From Escherichia phage Ge15, in the sequence record PP359696.1: a DNA stretch of 64,000 bases; one strand, given 5' to 3'. Shown in pieces: positions 1,700-33,297 of this stretch. Made by a program: the position numbers and the translations under genes. The first letter of the stretch is position 1. The number at the start of each line of letters is the position of its first letter. The notes beneath the pieces are model-generated. The model was not told the DNA's origin. It worked only from the letters and a program-made list of their open reading frames with translations, and searched no databases.

Positions 1700-1752
1700 G
1701 TTTACAAGTCCCTCGTGTTGTGTTACAGTAGTCTTACTGACATAACATGAGG
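1700..1752 (+). promoter_or_regulatory. Early-promoter-like GTTTAC element followed by a ~16-bp imperfect hairpin that sequesters the alc Shine-Dalgarno (GAGG)
   Basis: GTTTAC at 1700-1705; arms 1711-1728 and 1737-1752 pair with G-U wobbles; GAGG at 1749-1752 inside the 3' arm; near-identical copy at 20103-20155. Confidence 0.55.
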
Positions 1753-1760
1753 ACTTTATG

Positions 1761-5024: not shown

Positions 5025-5063
5025 GTTTACTTTACGGTAGAGTTGTGATATTATAGCTCTACC
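5025..5063 (+). promoter_or_regulatory. Putative early promoter (GTTTAC -35, TATTAT -10) with inverted repeat enclosing the -10
   Basis: GTTTAC 5025-5030; tattat 5049-5054; inverted repeat ggtagag 5036-5042 / ctctacc 5057-5063; followed by SD GAGGA and ATG 5085. Confidence 0.5.
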
Positions 5064-5084
5064 AAAACAAATGAGGAAATTGAA

Positions 5085-5612
5085 ATGAGCGAATGGTTTG
5101 AAGAAGATAAGGTTTATCGCTTTAAAGCTGGATATAAAGATATTTTTAATGAAACTTGTGGGGCTAATAAACGAATTGCTCAGTTTATTGGGGAAAATTC
5201 ATTTAAAGTAAAAATAGATCCTGCGAAAAATGTTATTAGCATTAAACGCGAAATTGACGATTGCTGGTATAAAGCTGTTGATGTAATGGGCGAATCTTAT
5301 AAAGAAAGCCCGCTATTTTCAATTACTTATATGTCAGAATATTATTTTTTCGAAGAAGTTCAAAAAGATGACTCTATCAGTAAATTTGAAATTAAAACTG
5401 ATAAAGAAATTAAGTGGAAAGTAGTAGGTATTACTGGTTGTATGTTTTATATCTATGCTCAAACTGATACGAAGGAAGAAGCTAAAAAGAAAGCTCTAGA
5501 ATATCTTGAAGAGTATGAAGAAGGCCCGGTAATGATTACCCAAGATGCCGAATTAGTTTCTGTCAAATTAGTTAAAAACGTTGAAAGTAAGGAGCTGGGA
5601 TCAACATGCTAA
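5085..5612 (+). CDS. Hypothetical protein
   Basis: 175-aa ORF with good SD (gagga) 8 nt upstream. Confidence 0.6.
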   Translation: MSEWFEEDKVYRFKAGYKDIFNETCGANKRIAQFIGENSFKVKIDPAKNVISIKREIDDCWYKAVDVMGESYKESPLFSITYMSEYYFFEEVQKDDSISKFEIKTDKEIKWKVVGITGCMFYIYAQTDTKEEAKKKALEYLEEYEEGPVMITQDAELVSVKLVKNVESKELGSTC

Positions 5613-8465: not shown

Positions 8466-8642
8466 ATGGCAAAACAAGCTAAAGCAAAGAAAGCAGTTGA
8501 AAAGAAAGTTGGTGATTCTAAACGCGCTGGCTACAAGCGTGGGTCGAACTCTCGTATCAATCAAACTGTTGAGAAGATCATGCGCCGAGCACGTGCGGTT
8601 CTTCGAGATGATGCTTCTCGTTTTGGTAAGCAGAAAGCATAA
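8466..8642 (+). CDS. Hypothetical small, highly basic protein (30.9 position)
   Basis: 58 aa from ATG 8466 (MAKQAKAKKAVEKKVGDSKRAGYKRG...); followed by a strong terminator. Confidence 0.6.
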   Translation: MAKQAKAKKAVEKKVGDSKRAGYKRGSNSRINQTVEKIMRRARAVLRDDASRFGKQKA

Positions 8643-8647
8643 GTTGA

Positions 8648-8671
8648 GGACTCCTTCGGGAGTCCTTTTTT
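8648..8671 (+). terminator. Rho-independent terminator
   Basis: ggactcc-ttcg-ggagtcc hairpin followed by TTTTTT. Confidence 0.8.
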
Positions 8672-8752
8672 ATTTTCCAAAGATTGCACAAAGTTGTTTA
8701 CAGTATAGTTCCTTTGTGATAGTATTATTTTACACAAACAAAGGAGAATAAA

Positions 8753-9121
8753 ATGAAAATCAATCTTAACTCATACATCAAAGGTAAAGATCACGACGGC
8801 TATAAAGCTATCGAAACTAAAGAACTTCAGTGGCATTTATATAAAGAACAATTTGAATTCGTAGGTTGCATGACTCCTGAAGGTCCTTCTGATGATTTCT
8901 CTTGGAAAATAATGTTAACTAACTTTTTTACTGGAGATACATACGAATTAAAAACTTTGATTCTTGGTAAAATTCGCTGTGAGACTTATGAAGATAAAGA
9001 AACTGGTTATTCTGAAGATGTTACATGGTATCAAAATGGTCGTATTACCGCTGATCTTTTGATTGAAAAAATGAAAGCCAAAGGTGAATTAAATTTAGAT
9101 AATTGGATTAAAGTTGCATAA
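8753..9121 (+). CDS. Hypothetical protein (30.8 position)
   Basis: 122-aa ORF with SD aaggag. Confidence 0.6.
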   Translation: MKINLNSYIKGKDHDGYKAIETKELQWHLYKEQFEFVGCMTPEGPSDDFSWKIMLTNFFTGDTYELKTLILGKIRCETYEDKETGYSEDVTWYQNGRITADLLIEKMKAKGELNLDNWIKVA

Positions 9122-9125
9122 AATA

Positions 9126-9165
9126 GTTTACTTTGGTACAGGATATGATATTATATACCTGTACC
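9126..9165 (+). promoter_or_regulatory. Putative early promoter (GTTTAC -35, TATTAT -10) with inverted repeat enclosing the -10
   Basis: GTTTAC 9126-9131; tattat 9149-9154; inverted repeat ggtacagg 9135-9142 / cctgtacc 9158-9165; same architecture as 5025-5063 with a different stem sequence. Confidence 0.5.
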
Positions 9166-9191
9166 GCAATTAAACATCTCGGAGAATAAAA

Positions 9192-9557
9192 ATGAACTAC
9201 ATCAACTTTGAACGTAAATATGTTTCTAACGGTATTGCAGGTTCTATTGATACTATCTGCCTTTGGAAACATCAAAATGGATCAGTATGCGAAATTGAAC
9301 AGTATATGACTCCTAACTACGTTTATATGCGATTTGAAAATGGCATCACGGTTTCAATCACGAAAGAAGGTTCTTCTTTTAAAATCGCTTTAGATGATGA
9401 TTTTCGTCAACGCGATTTAGGGACTCATCCTTGCTGGAATGGCGTCAATCGTAAGCTTCTGGTTAAAACTTGGATTCGTCATATTTTGAGTAACAGAGCT
9501 AAACCTGAGCATCTTGAAGCAATCTTTGATGTAGTTCTTAACGAATTTGATATTTAA
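9192..9557 (+). CDS. Hypothetical protein (30.7 position)
   Basis: 121-aa ORF with SD ggaga. Confidence 0.6.
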   Translation: MNYINFERKYVSNGIAGSIDTICLWKHQNGSVCEIEQYMTPNYVYMRFENGITVSITKEGSSFKIALDDDFRQRDLGTHPCWNGVNRKLLVKTWIRHILSNRAKPEHLEAIFDVVLNEFDI

Positions 9558-10737: not shown

Positions 10738-11597
10738 AGCCTACTATTTTGACTGATATTGATGGAGTATGTTTAAGCTGGCAATCAGGCCTTCCTTATT
10801 TTGCTCAGAAATATAATCTTCCGTTAGAACATATTTTAAAAATGATCCAAGATGAGAAATTTATTTCTCCGGGTAAACTCTTTAATTGTGATGAAGAACT
10901 TGGTGTCAAGTTAATTGAAAAATATAATCGATCAGATTTTATTCGTTATTTGTCTCCATATAAAGATGCACTGTGTGTAATTAACAAATTAAAAGAAGAT
11001 TATAATTTTGTAGCTGTTACAGCATTGGGTGATTCTATTGACGCTCTGTTGAATCGTCAATTTAATTTGAATGCTCTTTTTCCTGGTGCCTTCTCAGAAG
11101 TAATGATGTGTGGTCATGATTCTTCAAAAGAAGAGTTATTCAAAAAGGCAAAAGAGAAATATAACGTAATTTGTTATATTGACGATCTCGCTCACCATTG
11201 CGATCATGCGAGTGAAATATTAAATGTTCCTGTTTATTGGATGGCGCGAGGAGAGCGTGACAATATTCCAAAAACCGCTCAGCGAGTTTATACATGGAAT
11301 GATGTAGAAAATAAGCTTTTTTCGCCGAAGGAAAATAAAGAAAGTTTTGATAATGAAAAAGCTATAAAAGATGTAATTGAGAAGATGGTTAAAAACGATT
11401 CTTTTCGTTGGAACACTACCTGGAGAACTCCTGGATTTAATCCGTATAATCCATATTATACACATCCATATAATCCATATTATACACACCCGTATCATAT
11501 GAATCCATTCCATACGTGGAGTTATACTAAGCCTGGTGATGCAGGGTATTTTAATAGATTTACTAGTGGTGATAATATTTTCCAAGGAGCATTCTAA
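10734..11597 (+). CDS. HAD-superfamily hydrolase-like protein with C-terminal Pro/Tyr-rich repeats (30.2 position)
   Basis: 287 aa; N-terminal HAD motif I ILTDIDGV; C-terminal NPYNPYYTHPYNPYYTHPY repeats; its last 366 bp lie inside the duplicated segment. Confidence 0.7.
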   Translation: MKPTILTDIDGVCLSWQSGLPYFAQKYNLPLEHILKMIQDEKFISPGKLFNCDEELGVKLIEKYNRSDFIRYLSPYKDALCVINKLKEDYNFVAVTALGDSIDALLNRQFNLNALFPGAFSEVMMCGHDSSKEELFKKAKEKYNVICYIDDLAHHCDHASEILNVPVYWMARGERDNIPKTAQRVYTWNDVENKLFSPKENKESFDNEKAIKDVIEKMVKNDSFRWNTTWRTPGFNPYNPYYTHPYNPYYTHPYHMNPFHTWSYTKPGDAGYFNRFTSGDNIFQGAF

Positions 11598-11644
11598 TGT
11601 TTGTCGTTCACACTATTTATGAAAATGAAGGTAATACTACACGT
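11232..11644. repeat. 413-bp direct repeat, copy 1 (3' part of 30.2 plus first 16 codons of 30.1)
   Basis: Identical by eye to 13617-14029; identity stops on both sides at sharp junctions. Confidence 0.9.
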
Positions 11645-11683
11645 CCGTATAATCCATATTATACACATCCATATAATCCATAA
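11597..11683 (+). pseudogene. Truncated 30.1 start fused to repeat-derived sequence
   Basis: MFVVHTIYENEGNTTR (identical to the start of ORF 13982) followed by PYNPYYTHPYNP and a stop; reading frame broken by the insertion junction at 11644/11645. Confidence 0.7.
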
Positions 11684-12108
11684 TTTAATCCGTATAATCC
11701 ATATTATACACATCCTATAAAAAATTAAAATTAACCACAATAAGCGAATTGATTAAAAATATTTATTGTTCATTATCCGTCAGTAATCATCCCGGGCAAA
11801 TGCCCGGGAATTATTCTAGGATTATTTTCTTTGTTAAAAAAGACAAACGGTATTAACTGATGTATTTACTATTTACCGCTCCCTGCAGGGGGGATTATCA
11901 GAATCCGCGGTTATTCATTATTTATATACATTCAATAAAAAAGTAACCTCATAAAAAATCCTGTACTCACAGGGTGATGCGGGATAACTGACGTAAGGAG
12001 TGCTGCAGGGATTTGATTAGACTGGCCCCCTGAATCTCCAGACAACCAATATCACTTAAATAAGTGATAGTCTTAATACTAGTTTTTAGACTAGTCATTG
12101 GAGAACAG

Positions 12109-13616: not shown

Positions 13617-14029
13617 GTTTATTGGATGGCGCGAGGAGAGCGTGACAATATTCCAAAAACCGCTCAGCGAGTTTATACATGGAATGATGTAGAAAATAAG
13701 CTTTTTTCGCCGAAGGAAAATAAAGAAAGTTTTGATAATGAAAAAGCTATAAAAGATGTAATTGAGAAGATGGTTAAAAACGATTCTTTTCGTTGGAACA
13801 CTACCTGGAGAACTCCTGGATTTAATCCGTATAATCCATATTATACACATCCATATAATCCATATTATACACACCCGTATCATATGAATCCATTCCATAC
13901 GTGGAGTTATACTAAGCCTGGTGATGCAGGGTATTTTAATAGATTTACTAGTGGTGATAATATTTTCCAAGGAGCATTCTAATGTTTGTCGTTCACACTA
14001 TTTATGAAAATGAAGGTAATACTACACGT
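13617..14029. repeat. 413-bp direct repeat, copy 2
   Basis: Identical by eye to 11232-11644. Confidence 0.9.
13626..13982 (+). pseudogene. 5'-truncated duplicate of the 30.2 3' region
   Basis: Encodes the same 118 C-terminal residues as ORF 10734-11597 (MARGERDNIPKTAQRVYTW...); lacks the HAD N-terminal domain and its own expression signals. Confidence 0.75.
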
Positions 14030-15917: not shown

Positions 15918-15925
15918 TATAAATA
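15918..15925 (+). promoter_or_regulatory. Late promoter TATAAATA upstream of alt
   Basis: Exact TATAAATA about 20 nt upstream of the alt ATG, then SD gagagg. Confidence 0.65.
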
Positions 15926-15945: not shown

Positions 15946-18042
15946 ATGATGGAACTCATTACAGAATTATTTGACGAAGATACTACTCTTCCGATTACAA
16001 ACTTAAATCCAAAGAAGAAAATACCACAAATTTTTTCAGTTCATGTTGATGACGCAATTGAACAACCAGGCTTTCGTTTATGTACCTATACATCTGGAGG
16101 TGATACTAATCGCGATTTAAAGATGGGCGATAAAATGATGCATATTGTTCCTTTTACATTAACTGCTAAAGGTTCAATTGCTAAATTAAAAGGTCTCGGT
16201 CCAAGCCCAATTAATTACATCAATTCAGTTTTTACTGTTGCGATGCAGACGATGCGTCAGTATAAAATTGATGCCTGTATGCTTCGTATTCTTAAGTCTA
16301 AAACTGCTGGTCAAGCTCGTCAAATTCAACTTATTGCTGATAGACTTATCCGCAGTCGTTCAGGTGGCAGATACGTCCTTCTTAAGGAACTCTGGGATTA
16401 CGATAAAAAGTATGCATATATTCTTATACATCGCAAAAATGTATCACTAGAAGACATTCCAGGAGTTCCAGAAATTAGCACCGAGCTCTTTACTAAAGTT
16501 GAATCAAAGGTTGGTGATGTTTATATCAATAAAGATACTGGAGCTCAAGTAACTAAAAATGAGGCAATTGCTGCATCTATTGCGCAAGAAAACGATAAAC
16601 GTTCTGACCAAGCTGTAATCGTTAAAGTTAAAATTTCCCGTAGAGCAATTGCACAAAGTCAATCATTAGAATCTTCTAGATTTGAAAGTGAATTATTCCA
16701 AAAGTATGAATCTACCGCAGCTAATTTCAATAAACCTGCTACGGCTCCTTTAATTCCCGAAGCAGAAGAAATGAAGCTTGGAATTAATTCATTAGCTTCT
16801 AAAACTAAAGCAGCAAAAATTATTGCTGAAGGAACTGCAGATGAACTTCATTATGACTATAAATTCTTTTCAAAAAGTGAGGTTAATGAAGTTTCTGAAA
16901 AAATTAAAGATGTAATTCTTAATGCGATTAAAAATGAACCAACTACTTCAATAAAATGTTTAGAGAAATACGCAGCAGCTGTTAATCAATTATTTGAAGA
17001 ATATAAAGATAATTGGCTTGATAAACATAATAAAACCCGTAAAGGACAGCCAGATGAAGTCTGGGAAGAAATGACTAAAAATTCCTGGAACGCAGCAAAA
17101 ACTAAATTCCTCAAAAGAATGATTTACAGCTTTTCTGGAATTGGTGCAGGTCCAATGATTGATATTACTATTGCCCGTGATGGTTCTAAATATACTCCAT
17201 CACAAAAGCGTGGCATTAGAGAGTATTGCGGTTCAGGATATACTGACATCAATAATCTTCTTTTAGGACGCTACAATCCAGAACGATATGATGTAATGAG
17301 TGAAAAAGAAATTGAATCTGCTATAAATAACTTAGATTCAGCTTTTGAAAATGGTGACCGTATACCAGAAGGCATTACAGTTTATCGTGCTCAAAGCATG
17401 ACTGCTCCTATATACGAAGCACTAGTTAAAAATAAAGTGTTCTATTTCAGAAATTTTGTATCTACTTCTTTAACTCCTATCATTTTTGGACGTTTTGGAA
17501 TTACGCATACTGGTATTGGTCTTTTAGAACCAGAAGCTCGTAATGAATTGACAGTTGATAAAAATGAAGAAGGAATAACTATTAATCCAAGCGAAATAAG
17601 AGCGTATAAAGAAAATCCTGAATACGTTAAAGTTCAAATAGGATGGGCAATTGATGGAGCTCATAAAGTTAATGTTGTATATCCAGGAAGTCTCGGAATA
17701 GCAACAGAAGCTGAAGTTATTCTACCACGAGGATTGATGGTCAAAGTTAATAAAATAACTGATGCTTCTAATAATGACGGAACAACATCTAATAATACAA
17801 AACTCATTCAAGCTGAAGTTATGACTACGGAAGAACTCACCGAATCAGTCATTTATGACGGTGACCGTCTAATGGAAACTGGTGAAGTAGTTGCAATGAC
17901 AGGTGATATTGAAATAGAAGACAGAGTTGACTTTGCATCATTTGTTTCATCAAATGTTAAACAAAAAGTAGAATCATCTCTTGGAATTATTGCGTCTTGC
18001 ATAGATATTACAAACATGCCTTACAAGTTCGTTCAAGGATAA
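15946..18042 (+). CDS. alt: Alt-type mono-ADP-ribosyltransferase, packaged in the head (paralog 1)
   Basis: 698 aa; N-terminal MELITE|LF capsid-targeting/gp21-cleavage-type sequence; C-terminal R (VYRAQ), STS (FVSTSL) and ExE (EAEVILPRG) motifs. Confidence 0.85.
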   Translation: MMELITELFDEDTTLPITNLNPKKKIPQIFSVHVDDAIEQPGFRLCTYTSGGDTNRDLKMGDKMMHIVPFTLTAKGSIAKLKGLGPSPINYINSVFTVAMQTMRQYKIDACMLRILKSKTAGQARQIQLIADRLIRSRSGGRYVLLKELWDYDKKYAYILIHRKNVSLEDIPGVPEISTELFTKVESKVGDVYINKDTGAQVTKNEAIAASIAQENDKRSDQAVIVKVKISRRAIAQSQSLESSRFESELFQKYESTAANFNKPATAPLIPEAEEMKLGINSLASKTKAAKIIAEGTADELHYDYKFFSKSEVNEVSEKIKDVILNAIKNEPTTSIKCLEKYAAAVNQLFEEYKDNWLDKHNKTRKGQPDEVWEEMTKNSWNAAKTKFLKRMIYSFSGIGAGPMIDITIARDGSKYTPSQKRGIREYCGSGYTDINNLLLGRYNPERYDVMSEKEIESAINNLDSAFENGDRIPEGITVYRAQSMTAPIYEALVKNKVFYFRNFVSTSLTPIIFGRFGITHTGIGLLEPEARNELTVDKNEEGITINPSEIRAYKENPEYVKVQIGWAIDGAHKVNVVYPGSLGIATEAEVILPRGLMVKVNKITDASNNDGTTSNNTKLIQAEVMTTEELTESVIYDGDRLMETGEVVAMTGDIEIEDRVDFASFVSSNVKQKVESSLGIIASCIDITNMPYKFVQG

Positions 18043-18045
18043 ATC

Positions 18046-20103
18046 ATGGAACTTATTACAGAATTATTTGACGGCGCTTCGGCGCCGGTTGTTAACTTAA
18101 ATCCTAAGCATAAAATACCTCAAATTTTTGCTATTCAAACCGGTGAAGAAAGCGTGCTTCCTGGATTTAGATTTTGTACATACACCTCTGGCGGTGATAC
18201 AAATAAAAACGTTAAGCCAGGCGATAAAATGATGCATATCGTAATGATAGGTGTTAATGAGAAACTATCATTAGTTAAACTTAAAAACTTGGGTGGAAAT
18301 CCAATTGGTGTCATTAATGCGGTTTTTGATACTGCTCTTCAAACAATGAAACAGTATAAAATTGACGCATGCCTATTCCGCGTACTAAAAAGTAAAACAA
18401 ATGGTGCAGCTCGTCAAATGCAAGTTATTGCTGACCGTTTAGTACGTACTAAAGGAGCAGGTCGATATGTTCTTTTAAAGGAAATCTGGGATTACGATAA
18501 AAAGTATGCATATATTATGGTTTACCGTAAAAATGCCAATTTAGAAGACATTCCAGGTGTACCTCCTATTTCAACTGAGTTATTCACAAAAGTTGAATCA
18601 AAGGTTGGTGATGTTTATGTAGATGTTAAAACAGGTAATGCTGTTCCTAAAGCTGTTGCTGTTGCTGCTTCTATTGCTTTAGAAAATGATAAGCGCACGG
18701 ATCAAGCTGTTATTCAGAAAACTAAAATTAGTCGTCGATTGGCAGCACAAGCTCAATATTCTACTGTCGATGCTTCGCTTCAGGGTGATAGCTTCGCTGC
18801 CAAGAAATATCAAGAGTTTGAATCTAAAGTTCCGGTATATAAAGCAGAAGGACCAATGAACTCTGGTGTTATTCAGATTGGTTCAAACTTCAGCAAAGGA
18901 GCTATCGGTGGTATGAGAAGTGCTTCTCGTTTTAAATCTAACGATTATGAACTAGAAAGCTTCCGAAATCATATTGCATTGGCTCATGCACGTTTACGTG
19001 ATCCGTCTATCAGACTGCAGAGCGATATAACACATCAAGGTTCTCAAGAATATTTAAAGAATAAAGAATTTTTTGATTATAAAACCGATAAAATTTTGAG
19101 CGATCTCGCTGACATTAATATTTCTAATAGCTTTGATGTTATTAAGAAAATTATCAATGATTTAGTTAAAGGTTCTAAAGCCACGCCAGACGAAAAGGTA
19201 GCTATTATTCAATTTGTTATGAATGGCATTTATAAATTGATTAATGAATCTGCTGCTCAGGCATATGAATACGCAAGCACCGAAGTAACTCCAAAAGGAT
19301 TAACTCAGGCTGAGTCTGATGTAATAGAAGATTATTGTGCAGATTCATATGTTGAAATGAACTCGTTCCTCTTGGGTAAACCAGATTCTACCCGTGAAGA
19401 ATACATGGAACGAGCTATTAAACACATCGAGACAATGGATTCTGCATTCGCTAAAGGTTCAGTTCTTCCTCCAGGAACTACGCTTTATCGTGGACAAGAA
19501 GTTACTTTTAAAACTTTACGTCATAATATTGAAAATAAAATGTTCTATTTCAAGAACTTCGTATCCACATCGCTTAAACCAAATATCTTCGGTGAGCATG
19601 GTAAAAACTATATGGCTCTAGATGATTCCGGCGCAGTATTTTCTGGCGAAGGAGAAGGTTCAGTTGATGCTGAAGATTTAATGCATATGGGTAGTCACTC
19701 TGCTTATGCGAATGAAGACGCTGAAACTAGCGTAGGTATGGTAATTAAAGGGGCTGAGCGAATCAAAGTTATCGTTCCAGGTCATTTATCAGGATTTCCA
19801 TCAGAAGCTGAAGTTATTTTACCGCGTGGAATTTTGCTGAAGATTAATAAAGTGAGCACGTACATGATGAAAGAAACTGCTTATAATAAGTATCTAATCG
19901 AAGGCACAATCGTTCCTCCTTCTGAACAATTAGAAGAATCGGTATATGATGGCGATCATCTAATGGAAACTGGTGAAGTTCGTCCAATGGCTGGGTTTAA
20001 TCAATTCCTTGTAGAAGAATCAAAAGAAGAGGAAAACGAAGTTTCTCAAATCTTGGCTTCTTTGGTTAACATCAACGGAATGTCTAAAAAGTTCAAGATG
20101 TAG
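18046..20103 (+). CDS. Alt-like mono-ADP-ribosyltransferase (paralog 2)
   Basis: 685 aa; same N-terminal MELITELFD and conserved first ~230 aa; divergent middle; retains R (LYRGQ), STS, ExE (EAEVILPRG). Confidence 0.8.
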   Translation: MELITELFDGASAPVVNLNPKHKIPQIFAIQTGEESVLPGFRFCTYTSGGDTNKNVKPGDKMMHIVMIGVNEKLSLVKLKNLGGNPIGVINAVFDTALQTMKQYKIDACLFRVLKSKTNGAARQMQVIADRLVRTKGAGRYVLLKEIWDYDKKYAYIMVYRKNANLEDIPGVPPISTELFTKVESKVGDVYVDVKTGNAVPKAVAVAASIALENDKRTDQAVIQKTKISRRLAAQAQYSTVDASLQGDSFAAKKYQEFESKVPVYKAEGPMNSGVIQIGSNFSKGAIGGMRSASRFKSNDYELESFRNHIALAHARLRDPSIRLQSDITHQGSQEYLKNKEFFDYKTDKILSDLADINISNSFDVIKKIINDLVKGSKATPDEKVAIIQFVMNGIYKLINESAAQAYEYASTEVTPKGLTQAESDVIEDYCADSYVEMNSFLLGKPDSTREEYMERAIKHIETMDSAFAKGSVLPPGTTLYRGQEVTFKTLRHNIENKMFYFKNFVSTSLKPNIFGEHGKNYMALDDSGAVFSGEGEGSVDAEDLMHMGSHSAYANEDAETSVGMVIKGAERIKVIVPGHLSGFPSEAEVILPRGILLKINKVSTYMMKETAYNKYLIEGTIVPPSEQLEESVYDGDHLMETGEVRPMAGFNQFLVEESKEEENEVSQILASLVNINGMSKKFKM

Positions 20104-20155
20104 TTTACAAGTCCCTCGTGTTGTGTTACAATAGTTTTACTGACATAACATGAGG
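20103..20155 (+). promoter_or_regulatory. Second copy of the GTTTAC + SD-sequestering hairpin cassette
   Basis: Near-identical to 1700-1752 (GTTTACAAGTCCCTCGTGTTGTGTTACA...CTGACATAACATGAGG); precedes ORF 20164. Confidence 0.55.
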
Positions 20156-20163
20156 AACACAAA

Positions 20164-20454
20164 ATGAAATCTTCTTTACGCTTTTTAGGTCAAGAACTTG
20201 TAGTTGAAGGCGTTATTCCTGCTGATAACGCTTTTAATGAAGCAGTTTATGATGAATTTATCAAAATTTTTGGAACAGATAAAAAGTTCGGAATTTTTCC
20301 TTCTGAAAATTTTTTAAAGCCAGAACAGACTGAAAGCATTTTCCAGGGTGTAGTAACAGGTAAATTTGAGTCAGAAGCTCCGGTAAAAATTGAAGTTTAT
20401 ATTGAAGACAGTTTAGTTGCTTCAGTTGCTGCTTTTATTTCATTCCGTAAATAA
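20164..20454 (+). CDS. Hypothetical acidic protein
   Basis: 96-aa ORF between the alt paralog and gene 54. Confidence 0.55.
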   Translation: MKSSLRFLGQELVVEGVIPADNAFNEAVYDEFIKIFGTDKKFGIFPSENFLKPEQTESIFQGVVTGKFESEAPVKIEVYIEDSLVASVAAFISFRK

Positions 20455-20460
20455 AAATAT

Positions 20461-20478
20461 GGGGACCGTTCGGTCCCC
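20461..20478. terminator. Hairpin at convergent gene boundary (plus ORF 20164 / minus gene 54)
   Basis: ggggacc-gttc-ggtcccc perfect stem; no long U-tract. Confidence 0.5.
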
Positions 20479-20482
20479 ATTG

Positions 20483-31878: not shown

Positions 31879-33297
31879 ATGGCTTTTACAGTTGATATAA
31901 CTCCTAAAACACCGACAGGGGTTATTGATGAAACTAAGCAGTTTACTGCTACACCCAGTGGTGAAACTGGAGGCGGAACTATTACATATGCTTGGACTGT
32001 AGATAATGTTCCACAAGATGGAGCTGAAGCAACTTTTGATTATGTATTAAAAGGACCTGCTGGACAAAAGACTATTAAAGTAGTTGCAACAAATACACTT
32101 TCTGAAGGAGGCCCGGAAACGGCTGAAGCGACAACAACTATCACAGTTCAAAATAAGACACAAACGACTACCTTAGCTGTAACTCCTGCTAGTCCTGCGG
32201 CTGGAGTGATTGGAACAGCCGTTCAATTTACCGCTGCCTTAGATTCACAGCCGCCAGGTGCATCTGCTACGTATCAATGGCACGTTGACGGTTCTCCTGT
32301 AAGCGAAGCAACTGACGCTACATTCAATTACACTCCTGACACAAGCGGAGTTAAAACAATTAAGTGTGTAGCTCAAGTAACCGCGACAGATTATGATACA
32401 AAGGAAGTTACTTCCAATGAAGTGTCACTGACTGTTAATAAAAAGACGCAGACAACTACATTAGCCGTAACTCCTGATAGTCCTTCAGCTGGAGTAATTG
32501 GAACCCCAGTTCAATTTACTGCTGCCTTGGTTTCTCAACCTGTTGGAGCGTCTGCTACATATAAATGGTATGTAGATGATTCACAAGTTGGTGGAGAAAC
32601 TAACTCTACATTTAACTATACTCCAACTACAAGTGGAGTAAAAAGAATTAAATGCGTAGCGCAAGTAACGGCAGAAAATTACAATGAAAAGGAAGTTACT
32701 TCTAATGAAGTATCATTGACAGTTAATAAGAAGACAATGAATCCACAAGTTACATTGACTCCTCCTTCTATTAACGTTCAGCAAGATGCTTCGGCTACAT
32801 TTACGGCTAATGTCACTGATGCTCCAGAAGAAGCACAAATCGAATATTCATGGAAGAAAGATTCTTCTCCTGTAGAAGAATCAACTAATGTATACACCGT
32901 TGATACATCATCTATCGGAAGTCAAACTATTGAAGTTACTGCCACTGTTACTGTCACTGATTATGATAGCAAAACTATCACAGCAGAAGGTCAAGTTCAG
33001 GTAACTGATAAAGTTGCTCCAGAACCAGAAGGTGAATTGCCTTATGTTCATCCTCTTCCACATCGTACTTCAGCTTATATCTGGTGCGGTTGGTGGGTTA
33101 TGGATGAAATCCAAAAAATGACAGAAGAAGGTAAAGATTGGAAAACTGAAGATCCAGATAGTAAATACTACCTGCATCGTTACACCCTTCAGAAGATGAT
33201 GAAAGACTATCCAGAAGTTGATGTTCAAGAATCACGTAATGGATACATCATTCATAAAACTGCTTTAGAAACTGGTATCATCTATACCTATCCATAA
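31879..33297 (+). CDS. hoc: Hoc head outer capsid protein, 4 Ig-like domains + capsid-binding C-terminal domain
   Basis: 472 aa; tandem Ig-like repeats; C-terminal domain ...PYVHPLPHRTSAYIWCGWWVMDEIQKM...; about 96 aa longer than the ~376 aa I recall for T4 Hoc. Confidence 0.9.
   Translation: MAFTVDITPKTPTGVIDETKQFTATPSGETGGGTITYAWTVDNVPQDGAEATFDYVLKGPAGQKTIKVVATNTLSEGGPETAEATTTITVQNKTQTTTLAVTPASPAAGVIGTAVQFTAALDSQPPGASATYQWHVDGSPVSEATDATFNYTPDTSGVKTIKCVAQVTATDYDTKEVTSNEVSLTVNKKTQTTTLAVTPDSPSAGVIGTPVQFTAALVSQPVGASATYKWYVDDSQVGGETNSTFNYTPTTSGVKRIKCVAQVTAENYNEKEVTSNEVSLTVNKKTMNPQVTLTPPSINVQQDASATFTANVTDAPEEAQIEYSWKKDSSPVEESTNVYTVDTSSIGSQTIEVTATVTVTDYDSKTITAEGQVQVTDKVAPEPEGELPYVHPLPHRTSAYIWCGWWVMDEIQKMTEEGKDWKTEDPDSKYYLHRYTLQKMMKDYPEVDVQESRNGYIIHKTALETGIIYTYP
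32152..32724 (+). repeat. Tandem duplication of an Ig-like domain coding unit inside hoc (2 x ~285 bp)
   Basis: Units 32152-32436 and 32437-32724 are roughly 80 percent identical at protein level (NKTQTTTLAVTPASPAAGVIG... vs NKKTQTTTLAVTPDSPSAGVIG...). Confidence 0.85.

Follow-up and report, generated by a model that had tools for sequence, protein, structure and literature searches.

Two copies of a promoter–hairpin cassette

We analysed a 64,000-nucleotide (nt) stretch of Escherichia phage Ge15 DNA (PP359696.1; the window), focusing on a 54-nt cassette, combining an early promoter with an RNA hairpin, that lies upstream of both alc and alt.-3. The window derives from a Tequatrovirus (T4-like) phage; it is 99.7% identical to Escherichia phage PinkRuby and 98–99% identical to many other Tequatrovirus phages, and its plus strand runs in the direction of T4 early transcription. 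Along this strand are rnlA (536–1696), alc, pseT.3 to pseT, cd, 31, rIII, the 30.x genes, 30 and alt.1, followed by alt (15946–18042), alt.-2 and alt.-3, with genes 54 and 48 convergent beyond. Copy A of the cassette separates rnlA from alc, and copy B separates alt.-2 from alt.-3 (Table 1).

Copies A and B are identical at 52 of 54 positions, with mismatches at element positions 29 and 34 only. Identity extends from the G of GTTTAC to GAGGA and is flanked on both sides by unrelated sequence. The copies lie in direct orientation on the plus strand, 18,403 nt apart. No such match arose in 100 dinucleotide-preserving shuffles, and no copy beyond A and B was found in the window by a search allowing up to three mismatches or by a repeat search. 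Over the same 54 nt, the other early-type promoters of the window reach only 56–70% identity, whether compared among themselves or with A and B, which makes the 96% identity of the pair an outlier. Common coding sequence or protein kinship of the downstream genes was ruled out as its source, since Alc and Alt.-3 are unrelated, yielding no BLASTP alignment at E ≤ 100. The initial annotation had described a promoter–hairpin cassette repeated in direct orientation about 18 kb apart in front of unrelated genes, and had placed the conservation in the regulatory element itself, all of which is borne out here. Some of its measurements needed correction: the same element is present at both sites but spans 54 nt rather than 53 (20103–20155 and 1700–1752); copy B does adjoin the stop codon of the alt paralogue, but its first G doubles as the last base of the TAG (20101–20103); and the distance to the ATG at 20164, given as 9 nt, is 8 nt after 20155 (7 nt after 20156).

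A predicted hairpin links the promoter spacer to the ribosome-binding site

A sigma-70 scan recognized the promoter of copy B as TTTACA and TACAAT separated by 17 nt, with an accompanying TG (10 of 12 matches), and that of copy A as the same arrangement with TACAGT (9 of 12 matches). From the usual 7-nt distance after the −10 element, the +1 of copy B would lie near A20139. The T4 records consulted carry no promoter feature at copy B, one related record has a computational 'promoter' feature there, and our literature search found no T4 transcription start site map.

The promoter is embedded in a predicted RNA hairpin with a 15-bp stem, including three G·U pairs, and a 12-nt loop, a structure on which the minimum free energy (MFE) and centroid predictions agree. 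The 3′ arm contains the Shine–Dalgarno (SD) sequence GAGG, located 8 nt ahead of the alt.-3 ATG. Predicted energies were −20.8 to −23.8 kcal/mol for copy B and approximately −26 to −29 kcal/mol for copy A, with a z-score near −4 and no shuffled sequence out of 200 folding as well. Owing to the three G·U pairs, the sense strand of copy B folds better than the antisense strand (−20.8 versus −17.4 kcal/mol). RNA from 20136 onward is predicted to be essentially unstructured (−4.5 kcal/mol, z-score +0.6); because the predicted start site falls inside the loop, only read-through RNA could form the hairpin. The arrangement is repeated in copy A upstream of alc, the ATG of which is at 1758 or 1761, with the T4-annotated start corresponding to 1761. 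The promoter spacer supplies the 5′ arm and the ribosome-binding site the 3′ arm, suggesting translational gating of read-through RNA. Neither copy matched an Rfam family at E ≤ 1, and a known RNA family was rejected.

Table 1. Features of the cassettes and their surroundings in the window
Feature	Position	Strand	Remarks
Copy A of the cassette	1700–1753	+	Between rnlA (gene 63) and alc
Copy A, −35	1701–1706	+
Copy A, hairpin 5′ arm	1711–1725	+
Copy A, −10	1724–1729	+	TACAGT
Copy A, hairpin 3′ arm	1738–1752	+
Copy A, SD	1749–1752	+
Early promoter with hairpin	5025–5087	+	−16.3 kcal/mol, z −4.2; GTTTAC, TGn, −10
Early promoter with hairpin	8696–8755	+	−12.1 kcal/mol, z −2.7; GTTTAC, TGn, −10
Early promoter with hairpin	9126–9196	+	−19.4 kcal/mol, z −4.8; GTTTAC, TGn, −10
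T4 late-promoter box TATAAATA	15918–15925	+	21 nt 5′ of the alt ATG
alt.-2, full-length alt paralogue	18046–20103	+	685 amino acids; directly 5′ of copy B
Copy B of the cassette	20103–20156	+	Between the alt.-2 stop and alt.-3
Copy B, −35 TTTACA	20104–20109	+	T4 early form GTTTAC at 20103–20108; sigma-70 scan
Copy B, hairpin 5′ arm CCUCGUGUUGUGUUA	20114–20128	+	Promoter spacer and first two −10 bases; 5′ of predicted +1
Copy B, extended −10 (TGt + TACAAT)	20124–20132	+	Hexamer at 20127–20132; sigma-70 scan
Copy B, hairpin 3′ arm UGACAUAACAUGAGG	20141–20155	+	Contains SD GAGG at 20152–20155
alt.-3, gene served by copy B	20164–20454	+	96 amino acids; named alt.-3 in ime09 and T4 annotation
Bidirectional terminator-like hairpin	20459–20480		End of the alt.-3 transcription unit, between convergent alt.-3 and 54

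Within the first 20 kb of the window, each of the five strong plus-strand early promoters (at 1700, 5025, 8696, 9126 and 20103) embeds a hairpin with its 5′ arm in the spacer. At 8696, spacer sequence UUCCUUUG pairs with the SD region CAAAGGAG; the hairpins at 5025 and 9126 stop short of the SD. In this region, hairpins embedded in early promoters thus seem to be general rather than peculiar to A and B, which are the only near-identical pair among the five.

Cassettes of this general build are known from T4-like phages as promoter-early stem-loops (PeSLs; Arbiol et al. 2010, PMC2839356; Comeau et al. 2014, PMC4122927). In the published descriptions, an early promoter and a stem-loop occupy the space from a stop codon to the following SD, the stem lying in the spacer or overlapping the −10; these stem-loops have been read as terminators or attenuators, and the cassettes have been proposed to mediate modular shuffling. 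Copies A and B could be PeSLs in this original sense, with a stem that terminates, attenuates or stabilizes the 3′ ends of upstream transcripts, a repeat that serves as a homology patch for shuffling, and SD burial that is incidental. One RB49 stem-loop lowered lacZ expression as much as a strong terminator (PMC2839356), PeSLs have been reported for the PST/T4 pair (PMC4122927), and the presence of hairpins in five of five strong early promoters, two of which miss the SD, also fits such a role, as does the exchange between cassettes described below. However, the sequence after the stem (AACACAAAAUG in copy B, CUUUAUGAUG in copy A) has no T run in either copy, the stem is AU/GU-rich, and the terminator scan, which called neither copy, recognized a proper terminator 300 nt further on, past alt.-3, at a place where related records have annotated terminators. 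We therefore rejected an intrinsic terminator at the cassette and consider the original-sense PeSL explanation as a whole unlikely, although it is the most credible of the alternatives weighed here.

Conservation and variation within Tequatrovirus

A 71-nt query around copy B matched 997 places in 499 phage records, two per record in nearly all; the T4 match (AF158101, 123,031–123,101) lies between alt.-2 and alt.-3. Both copies occupy the same two sites, 5′ of alc and 5′ of alt.-3, in approximately 499 records including T4. An exact-pattern scan of IMG/VR returned only 7 loci. The initial annotation had named low identity between the copies and absence from related genomes as the outcomes that would count against it, and neither was encountered. 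It had also raised the idea that recombination between the copies yields deletion variants, of which there is no sign: nearly all 499 records keep both copies, and no deletion between A and B was evident in these record counts, which were made without a dedicated search for chimeric junctions. The A–B interval includes two genes that T4 genetics has established as essential, gene 30 (DNA ligase) and gene 31, so phages with such a deletion should not be viable. The lack of indels or deletion variants tied to the A/B pair in 499 records also counts against the PeSL explanation.

We compared A with B in twelve fetched genomes or contigs. The copies are identical over all 54 nt in G9062, ECO4, PYps32T and one IMG/VR contig, one base apart in T4, and two to five bases apart in Sf21, T2 and the phage of the window; identity in the non-identical pairs is 91–98%. 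Most of the variation falls in the loop and at weak −10 positions (27, 29 and 32–34), and all five substitutions in the stem keep pairing: C–G to U·G (twice), G·U to A–U (position 16, in two backgrounds) and U·G to U–A. Both T2 copies carry a private loop change, G32A, and the two copies of the window share C27; these shared variants are hints of continuing conversion.

These patterns bear on whether the pair is a neutral relic, that is, a single duplication or conversion of a promoter with a hairpin that has no selected role. The long T4 early-promoter consensus makes some similarity expected, as seen among the other early promoters of the window. Yet 96–100% identity has been kept at both sites over approximately 499 genomes, variation in Tequatrovirus falls mostly in the loop with stem changes that preserve pairing, hairpin z-scores are about −4 to −6, and compensatory changes at alc extend across genera. 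We disfavour a neutral relic and regard it as scarcely credible.

Directly 5′ of copy B, alt.-2 has about 72% DNA identity to alt and is full length in the window, T2 and most relatives; in T4 (locus L002, 1152–1537), the alt paralogue has shrunk to alt.-1/alt.-2 fragments, although the cassette and the final ~25 nt of the gene survive the deletion.

The hairpin upstream of alc in other genera

Twenty-seven unique cassettes were collected from upstream of alc in T4-like genera, representing 11 lineages. Pair counts were indexed by distance from the −35, as MAFFT alignment of the alc cassettes misplaced the 3′ arms between genera. In 22 of the 27, at least three of the four SD bases pair with the spacer, the 5′ arm beginning right after the −35 and the 3′ arm ending in the SD; in spacer-shuffled controls the SD was paired in 37%. 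Hairpin z-scores at alc ranged from −3.6 to −6.8. Spacer offsets 8–24 from the −35 stay paired, with one to four canonical pair types at each and more than one at 15 of 17 offsets.

Overall, a spacer-to-SD hairpin is found at alc in at least eight T4-like lineages, with differing sequences and compensatory changes. The 5′ and 3′ arms are UCUCCUCAU and AUGAGGAGA in Dhakavirus, UCUCCAUUUGGUUGUGU and ACACUAACCAAAUGGAGA in Karamvirus, AUCCUCAUCAG and CUGAUGAGGAU in Jiaodavirus, and AUCCUCAUUUUGUUG and CAACAAAAUGAGGAU in Kagamiyamavirus. Stem variants include CCAUUU/AAAUGG versus CCGUUU/AAACGG (the latter in loci L034 and L058) and CUCAU/AUGAG versus CUCAG/CUGAG (the latter in L043). The anti-SD covaries with the SD variant, CUCC occurring with GGAG and CCUC with GAGG. 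The spacer–SD hairpin is thus old and under selection at alc. A 3′ arm that tracks the SD through sequence turnover, with a covarying anti-SD, is not predicted by a pure terminator role and further weakens the PeSL explanation.

The same comparison informs a role at the level of DNA, in which the inverted repeat over the −10/+1 region would act as an operator for a phage or host protein, or as a cruciform that tunes or shuts the early promoter, the promoters being co-regulated. The repeat does overlap core promoter elements, the mechanism of early-promoter shut-off has been described as not completely understood (PMC3014915), and outside Tequatrovirus the two strands fold about equally well. 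In contrast, the three G·U pairs conserved in Tequatrovirus would be mismatches in a cruciform (A·C on the other strand, consistent with the weaker antisense fold of copy B), and neither the 12-nt loop nor the imperfect arms would favour extrusion of a cruciform. Moreover, arm sequences are wholly different between genera while pairing is kept, which fits a structure better than a sequence-specific protein site. We consider a DNA-level role very improbable.

Probable exchange of cassettes between alc and alt.-3

The order alt, ~60 nt, alt.-3, convergent 54 is found in Gaprivervirus, Mosigvirus, Marfavirus, Kanagawavirus, Gelderlandvirus and Karamvirus. All six genera have a GTTTACA promoter and a (C)ATGAGGA ribosome-binding site at alt.-3, and the long SD hairpin is absent from this site in all six; an SD-pairing hairpin at alt.-3 was found in Tequatrovirus only. 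Instead, most of these alt.-3 spacers contain an internal hairpin of 4–6 bp (GCAC..GTGC, ACACA..TGTGT, CCACA..TGTGG or CATCC..GGATG).

On the simplest reading, gene conversion in the ancestor of Tequatrovirus put an alc-type cassette in place of the one at alt.-3, making use of the short homologies common to all these promoters. The spacer–SD hairpin would then be ancestral at alc and would have been imposed on alt.-3 in Tequatrovirus. Such exchange is not confined to Tequatrovirus. In a Dhakavirus-like IMG/VR contig, 2706795356, the cassettes at alc and alt.-3 (L049 versus L061) agree perfectly in their 3′ halves over 31+ nt (ACCTTACACAAACATGAGGAGAACATTATGAA), sister genomes differ over that stretch, and the alc hairpin is still maintained; we interpret the contig as a case of independent alc/alt.-3 exchange.

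The small spacer hairpin covaries, occurs at alt.-3 (L017–L022, ~845–900; L059–L076, ~1140–1200) and at Mosigvirus alc (L023 and L048), presents GGA in its loop (for example, CCACAAGGAUGUGG and ACACAUGGAUGUGU) and has a 3′ arm that overlaps the TGn. Speculatively, it resembles the CsrA SELEX site, ACARGGAUGU, and the GGA of the SD could be a second site.

A proposed translational gate set by the promoter of origin

We think it probable, although well short of assured, that these early promoters lie inside an RNA hairpin that acts as a translational gate, with the promoter of origin determining whether a transcript is translated, and that the near-identity of A and B stems from gene conversion. 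Under this model, host RNA polymerase would start in the loop near 20139 and produce a transcript that carries the 3′ arm only, leaving GAGG free, so that alt.-3 would be translated immediately after infection. RNA derived from upstream, namely the message of alt and alt.-2, part of it late RNA begun at the TATAAATA box (15918), would have both arms, fold the 15-bp helix and bury the SD, leaving alt.-3 untranslated. Copy A would gate alc likewise on rnlA read-through RNA.

The transcriptional context is compatible with this proposal. The plus-strand late boxes nearest to copy B are at 17322 (inside alt) and 15918 (upstream of alt); the window contains 19 late-promoter boxes versus approximately 8 expected by chance, and the box at 15918 fits the status of Alt as a late protein packaged in the head. 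A scan of 19800–20458, which takes in the alt.-2/alt.-3 junction but not the rest of alt and alt.-2, turned up no terminator-like site. Given a late box before alt and no terminator at the junction, late alt RNA should enter alt.-3 with its SD buried. The likely function of copy B would be to let Alt.-3 be translated only from RNA begun at its own early promoter, while late alt read-through RNA is kept silent. Published T4 expression timing fits this picture: alt.-3 and alc are early at both the RNA and the protein level, Alt is late as a protein, alt.-1/-2 RNA belongs to the middle class, and rnlA combines early RNA with late protein (PMC9697503 supplements).

Several observations weigh against this interpretation. 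The gate at alc and alt.-3 is something we infer from predicted folds, and the pair counts at alc came from per-sequence MFE folds, which are biased towards pairing. SD burial at alc is not universal, as a spacer-to-SD hairpin is missing from three of the 11 lineages: Mosigvirus carries the small hairpin within the spacer, the stem of L047/L056 ends just 5′ of the SD, and a Gaprivervirus-like form, whose 5′ arm comes after the −10, has a GGGG..CCCC stem around the −35 plus a second stem over the SD. When independent lineages are counted, SD pairing (8 of 11, versus ~0.4 expected) is only marginally enriched. Strand specificity is not general either, given the equally good antisense folds outside Tequatrovirus; as a test for a role at the RNA level, the comparison of strands is clear within Tequatrovirus and uninformative in the other genera. 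With respect to conversion, the Tequatrovirus cassette is equally similar (63–80%) to outgroup alc and alt.-3 cassettes; sequence identity is therefore uninformative about direction, for which the argument is one of architecture. Finally, the A/B identity could reflect purifying selection after a single old event rather than ongoing conversion.

The Gaprivervirus-like form comes from the contigs that also carry the SP18-like alt.-3 loci (alc loci L038, L039 and L057), in which GGGG-TGTACAA-GCCCC surrounds the −35 and a second stem, GGUUCCAUCA/UGAUGAGGACC, covers the SD; its G-run/C-run stem is like that typical of RB49-type PeSLs.

A broader version of the gating proposal is that, in Tevenvirinae, some early promoters hold an anti-SD in the −35/−10 spacer that keeps the gene silent on read-through RNA, and that this gate is a module that has been repeatedly copied between alc and alt.-3 by conversion in different genera. 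We advance this generalization tentatively, at slightly less than an even chance.

Relation to known systems

The cassette is real and strongly conserved, and is a variant of two known kinds of element, PeSLs and the SD-sequestering hairpins of T4. Like PeSLs, it packs a strong sigma-70-type early promoter and a stem-loop between a stop codon (20101–20103) and the next SD and ATG (20164), is repeated in the genome, has G–T pairs in its stems and shows exchange between loci, and its promoter fits the PST/T4 consensus TTTACW-N17-TAYWAT (PMC4122927). It differs in that its AU/GU-rich stem is without a G-run/C-run motif or U tail and spans the whole −10/+1 region, with the SD as its 3′ arm. Furthermore, what lies between A and B is not an ORFan but 18 kb of genes that are mostly conserved and in part essential, and the signature here is of conversion acting on the cassette, not of intervening DNA being inserted or deleted.

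In T4, the SD/AUG of genes e, soc, 49 and I-TevI is covered by a helix on long transcripts, and a promoter within the helix gives rise to a shorter, translatable RNA (PMC3014915). The cassette shares with these genes a predicted pairing of the SD in the long RNA and an own-promoter RNA that would lack the 5′ arm (the −10 ends at 20132 and the arm at 20128). In the T4 examples, however, the internal promoter is late (TATAAATA) and the silenced RNA is early or middle, whereas here the internal promoter is early and the silenced RNA would be rnlA or alt read-through, including late RNA, so that the timing is inverted. As its internal promoter is early and not late, the cassette represents a variant of this class.

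T4 early promoters comprise an UP element, a −35 GTTTAC, TGn and a −10 (Hinton 2010, PMC2988021). The −35, 17-nt spacer, TGn and −10 are all present in the cassette and the downstream genes are early in T4, but the consensus leaves unexplained both the identity that continues ~17 nt past +1 to the SD and the complementarity between spacer and SD. T-even internal-protein loci also have early-promoter/stem-loop elements (Repoila et al. 1994, as cited in PMC2839356); by the description given there, these have T4-type early promoters and weaker, AT-rich stem-loops and were proposed to take part in shuffling, although they are at different loci. What is modestly new here is the early-promoter version of the SD-sequestering switch, the covariation at alc across genera and the copying to alt.-3.

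Other features of the window

Two further duplications were seen. A perfect 300-nt direct repeat in the rIII/30.x region (11232–11531 and 13617–13916, 2385 nt apart) looks like a recent segmental duplication; it contains a ~24-nt motif, TCCGTATAATCCATATTATACACA, with 7 copies at 11441–11732 and 13826–13893. A tandem 288-nt duplication with 76% identity (32143–32430 and 32431–32718) probably represents repeated domains inside one gene. A sub-threshold Rfam match to the Rhizobiales sRNA Atu_C8 at 8598–8681 on the plus strand, directly 5′ of the early promoter at 8696, scored 31.4 bits where the gathering score is 50 (E 0.008) and is probably due to chance.

Implications

Even in T4, a model phage, control of the many small early genes has mostly been described at the level of transcription. 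If the gate operates as proposed, RNA structure by itself would limit Alc, which shuts off host transcription, and Alt.-3 to a brief immediate-early pulse, and translatability determined by the promoter of origin would apply to early as well as late genes, the spacer anti-SD gate being a mirror image of the classic late switch of T4 lysozyme. The gate offers a simple, testable reason why the Alt.-3 and Alc proteins are early and Alt, encoded just upstream, is late. Alt.-3 is a small protein that has attracted some recent attention, as its C-terminal extensions let T4 escape the CmdTAC defence (PMC11618068), and those who engineer alt.-3 or alc should be aware that the 54 nt upstream are duplicated and can recombine. 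More broadly, cassettes copied between loci 13–18 kb apart support the concept of mobile regulatory cassettes developed for PeSLs, here with a case in which the regulatory module, and not the gene, is exchanged.

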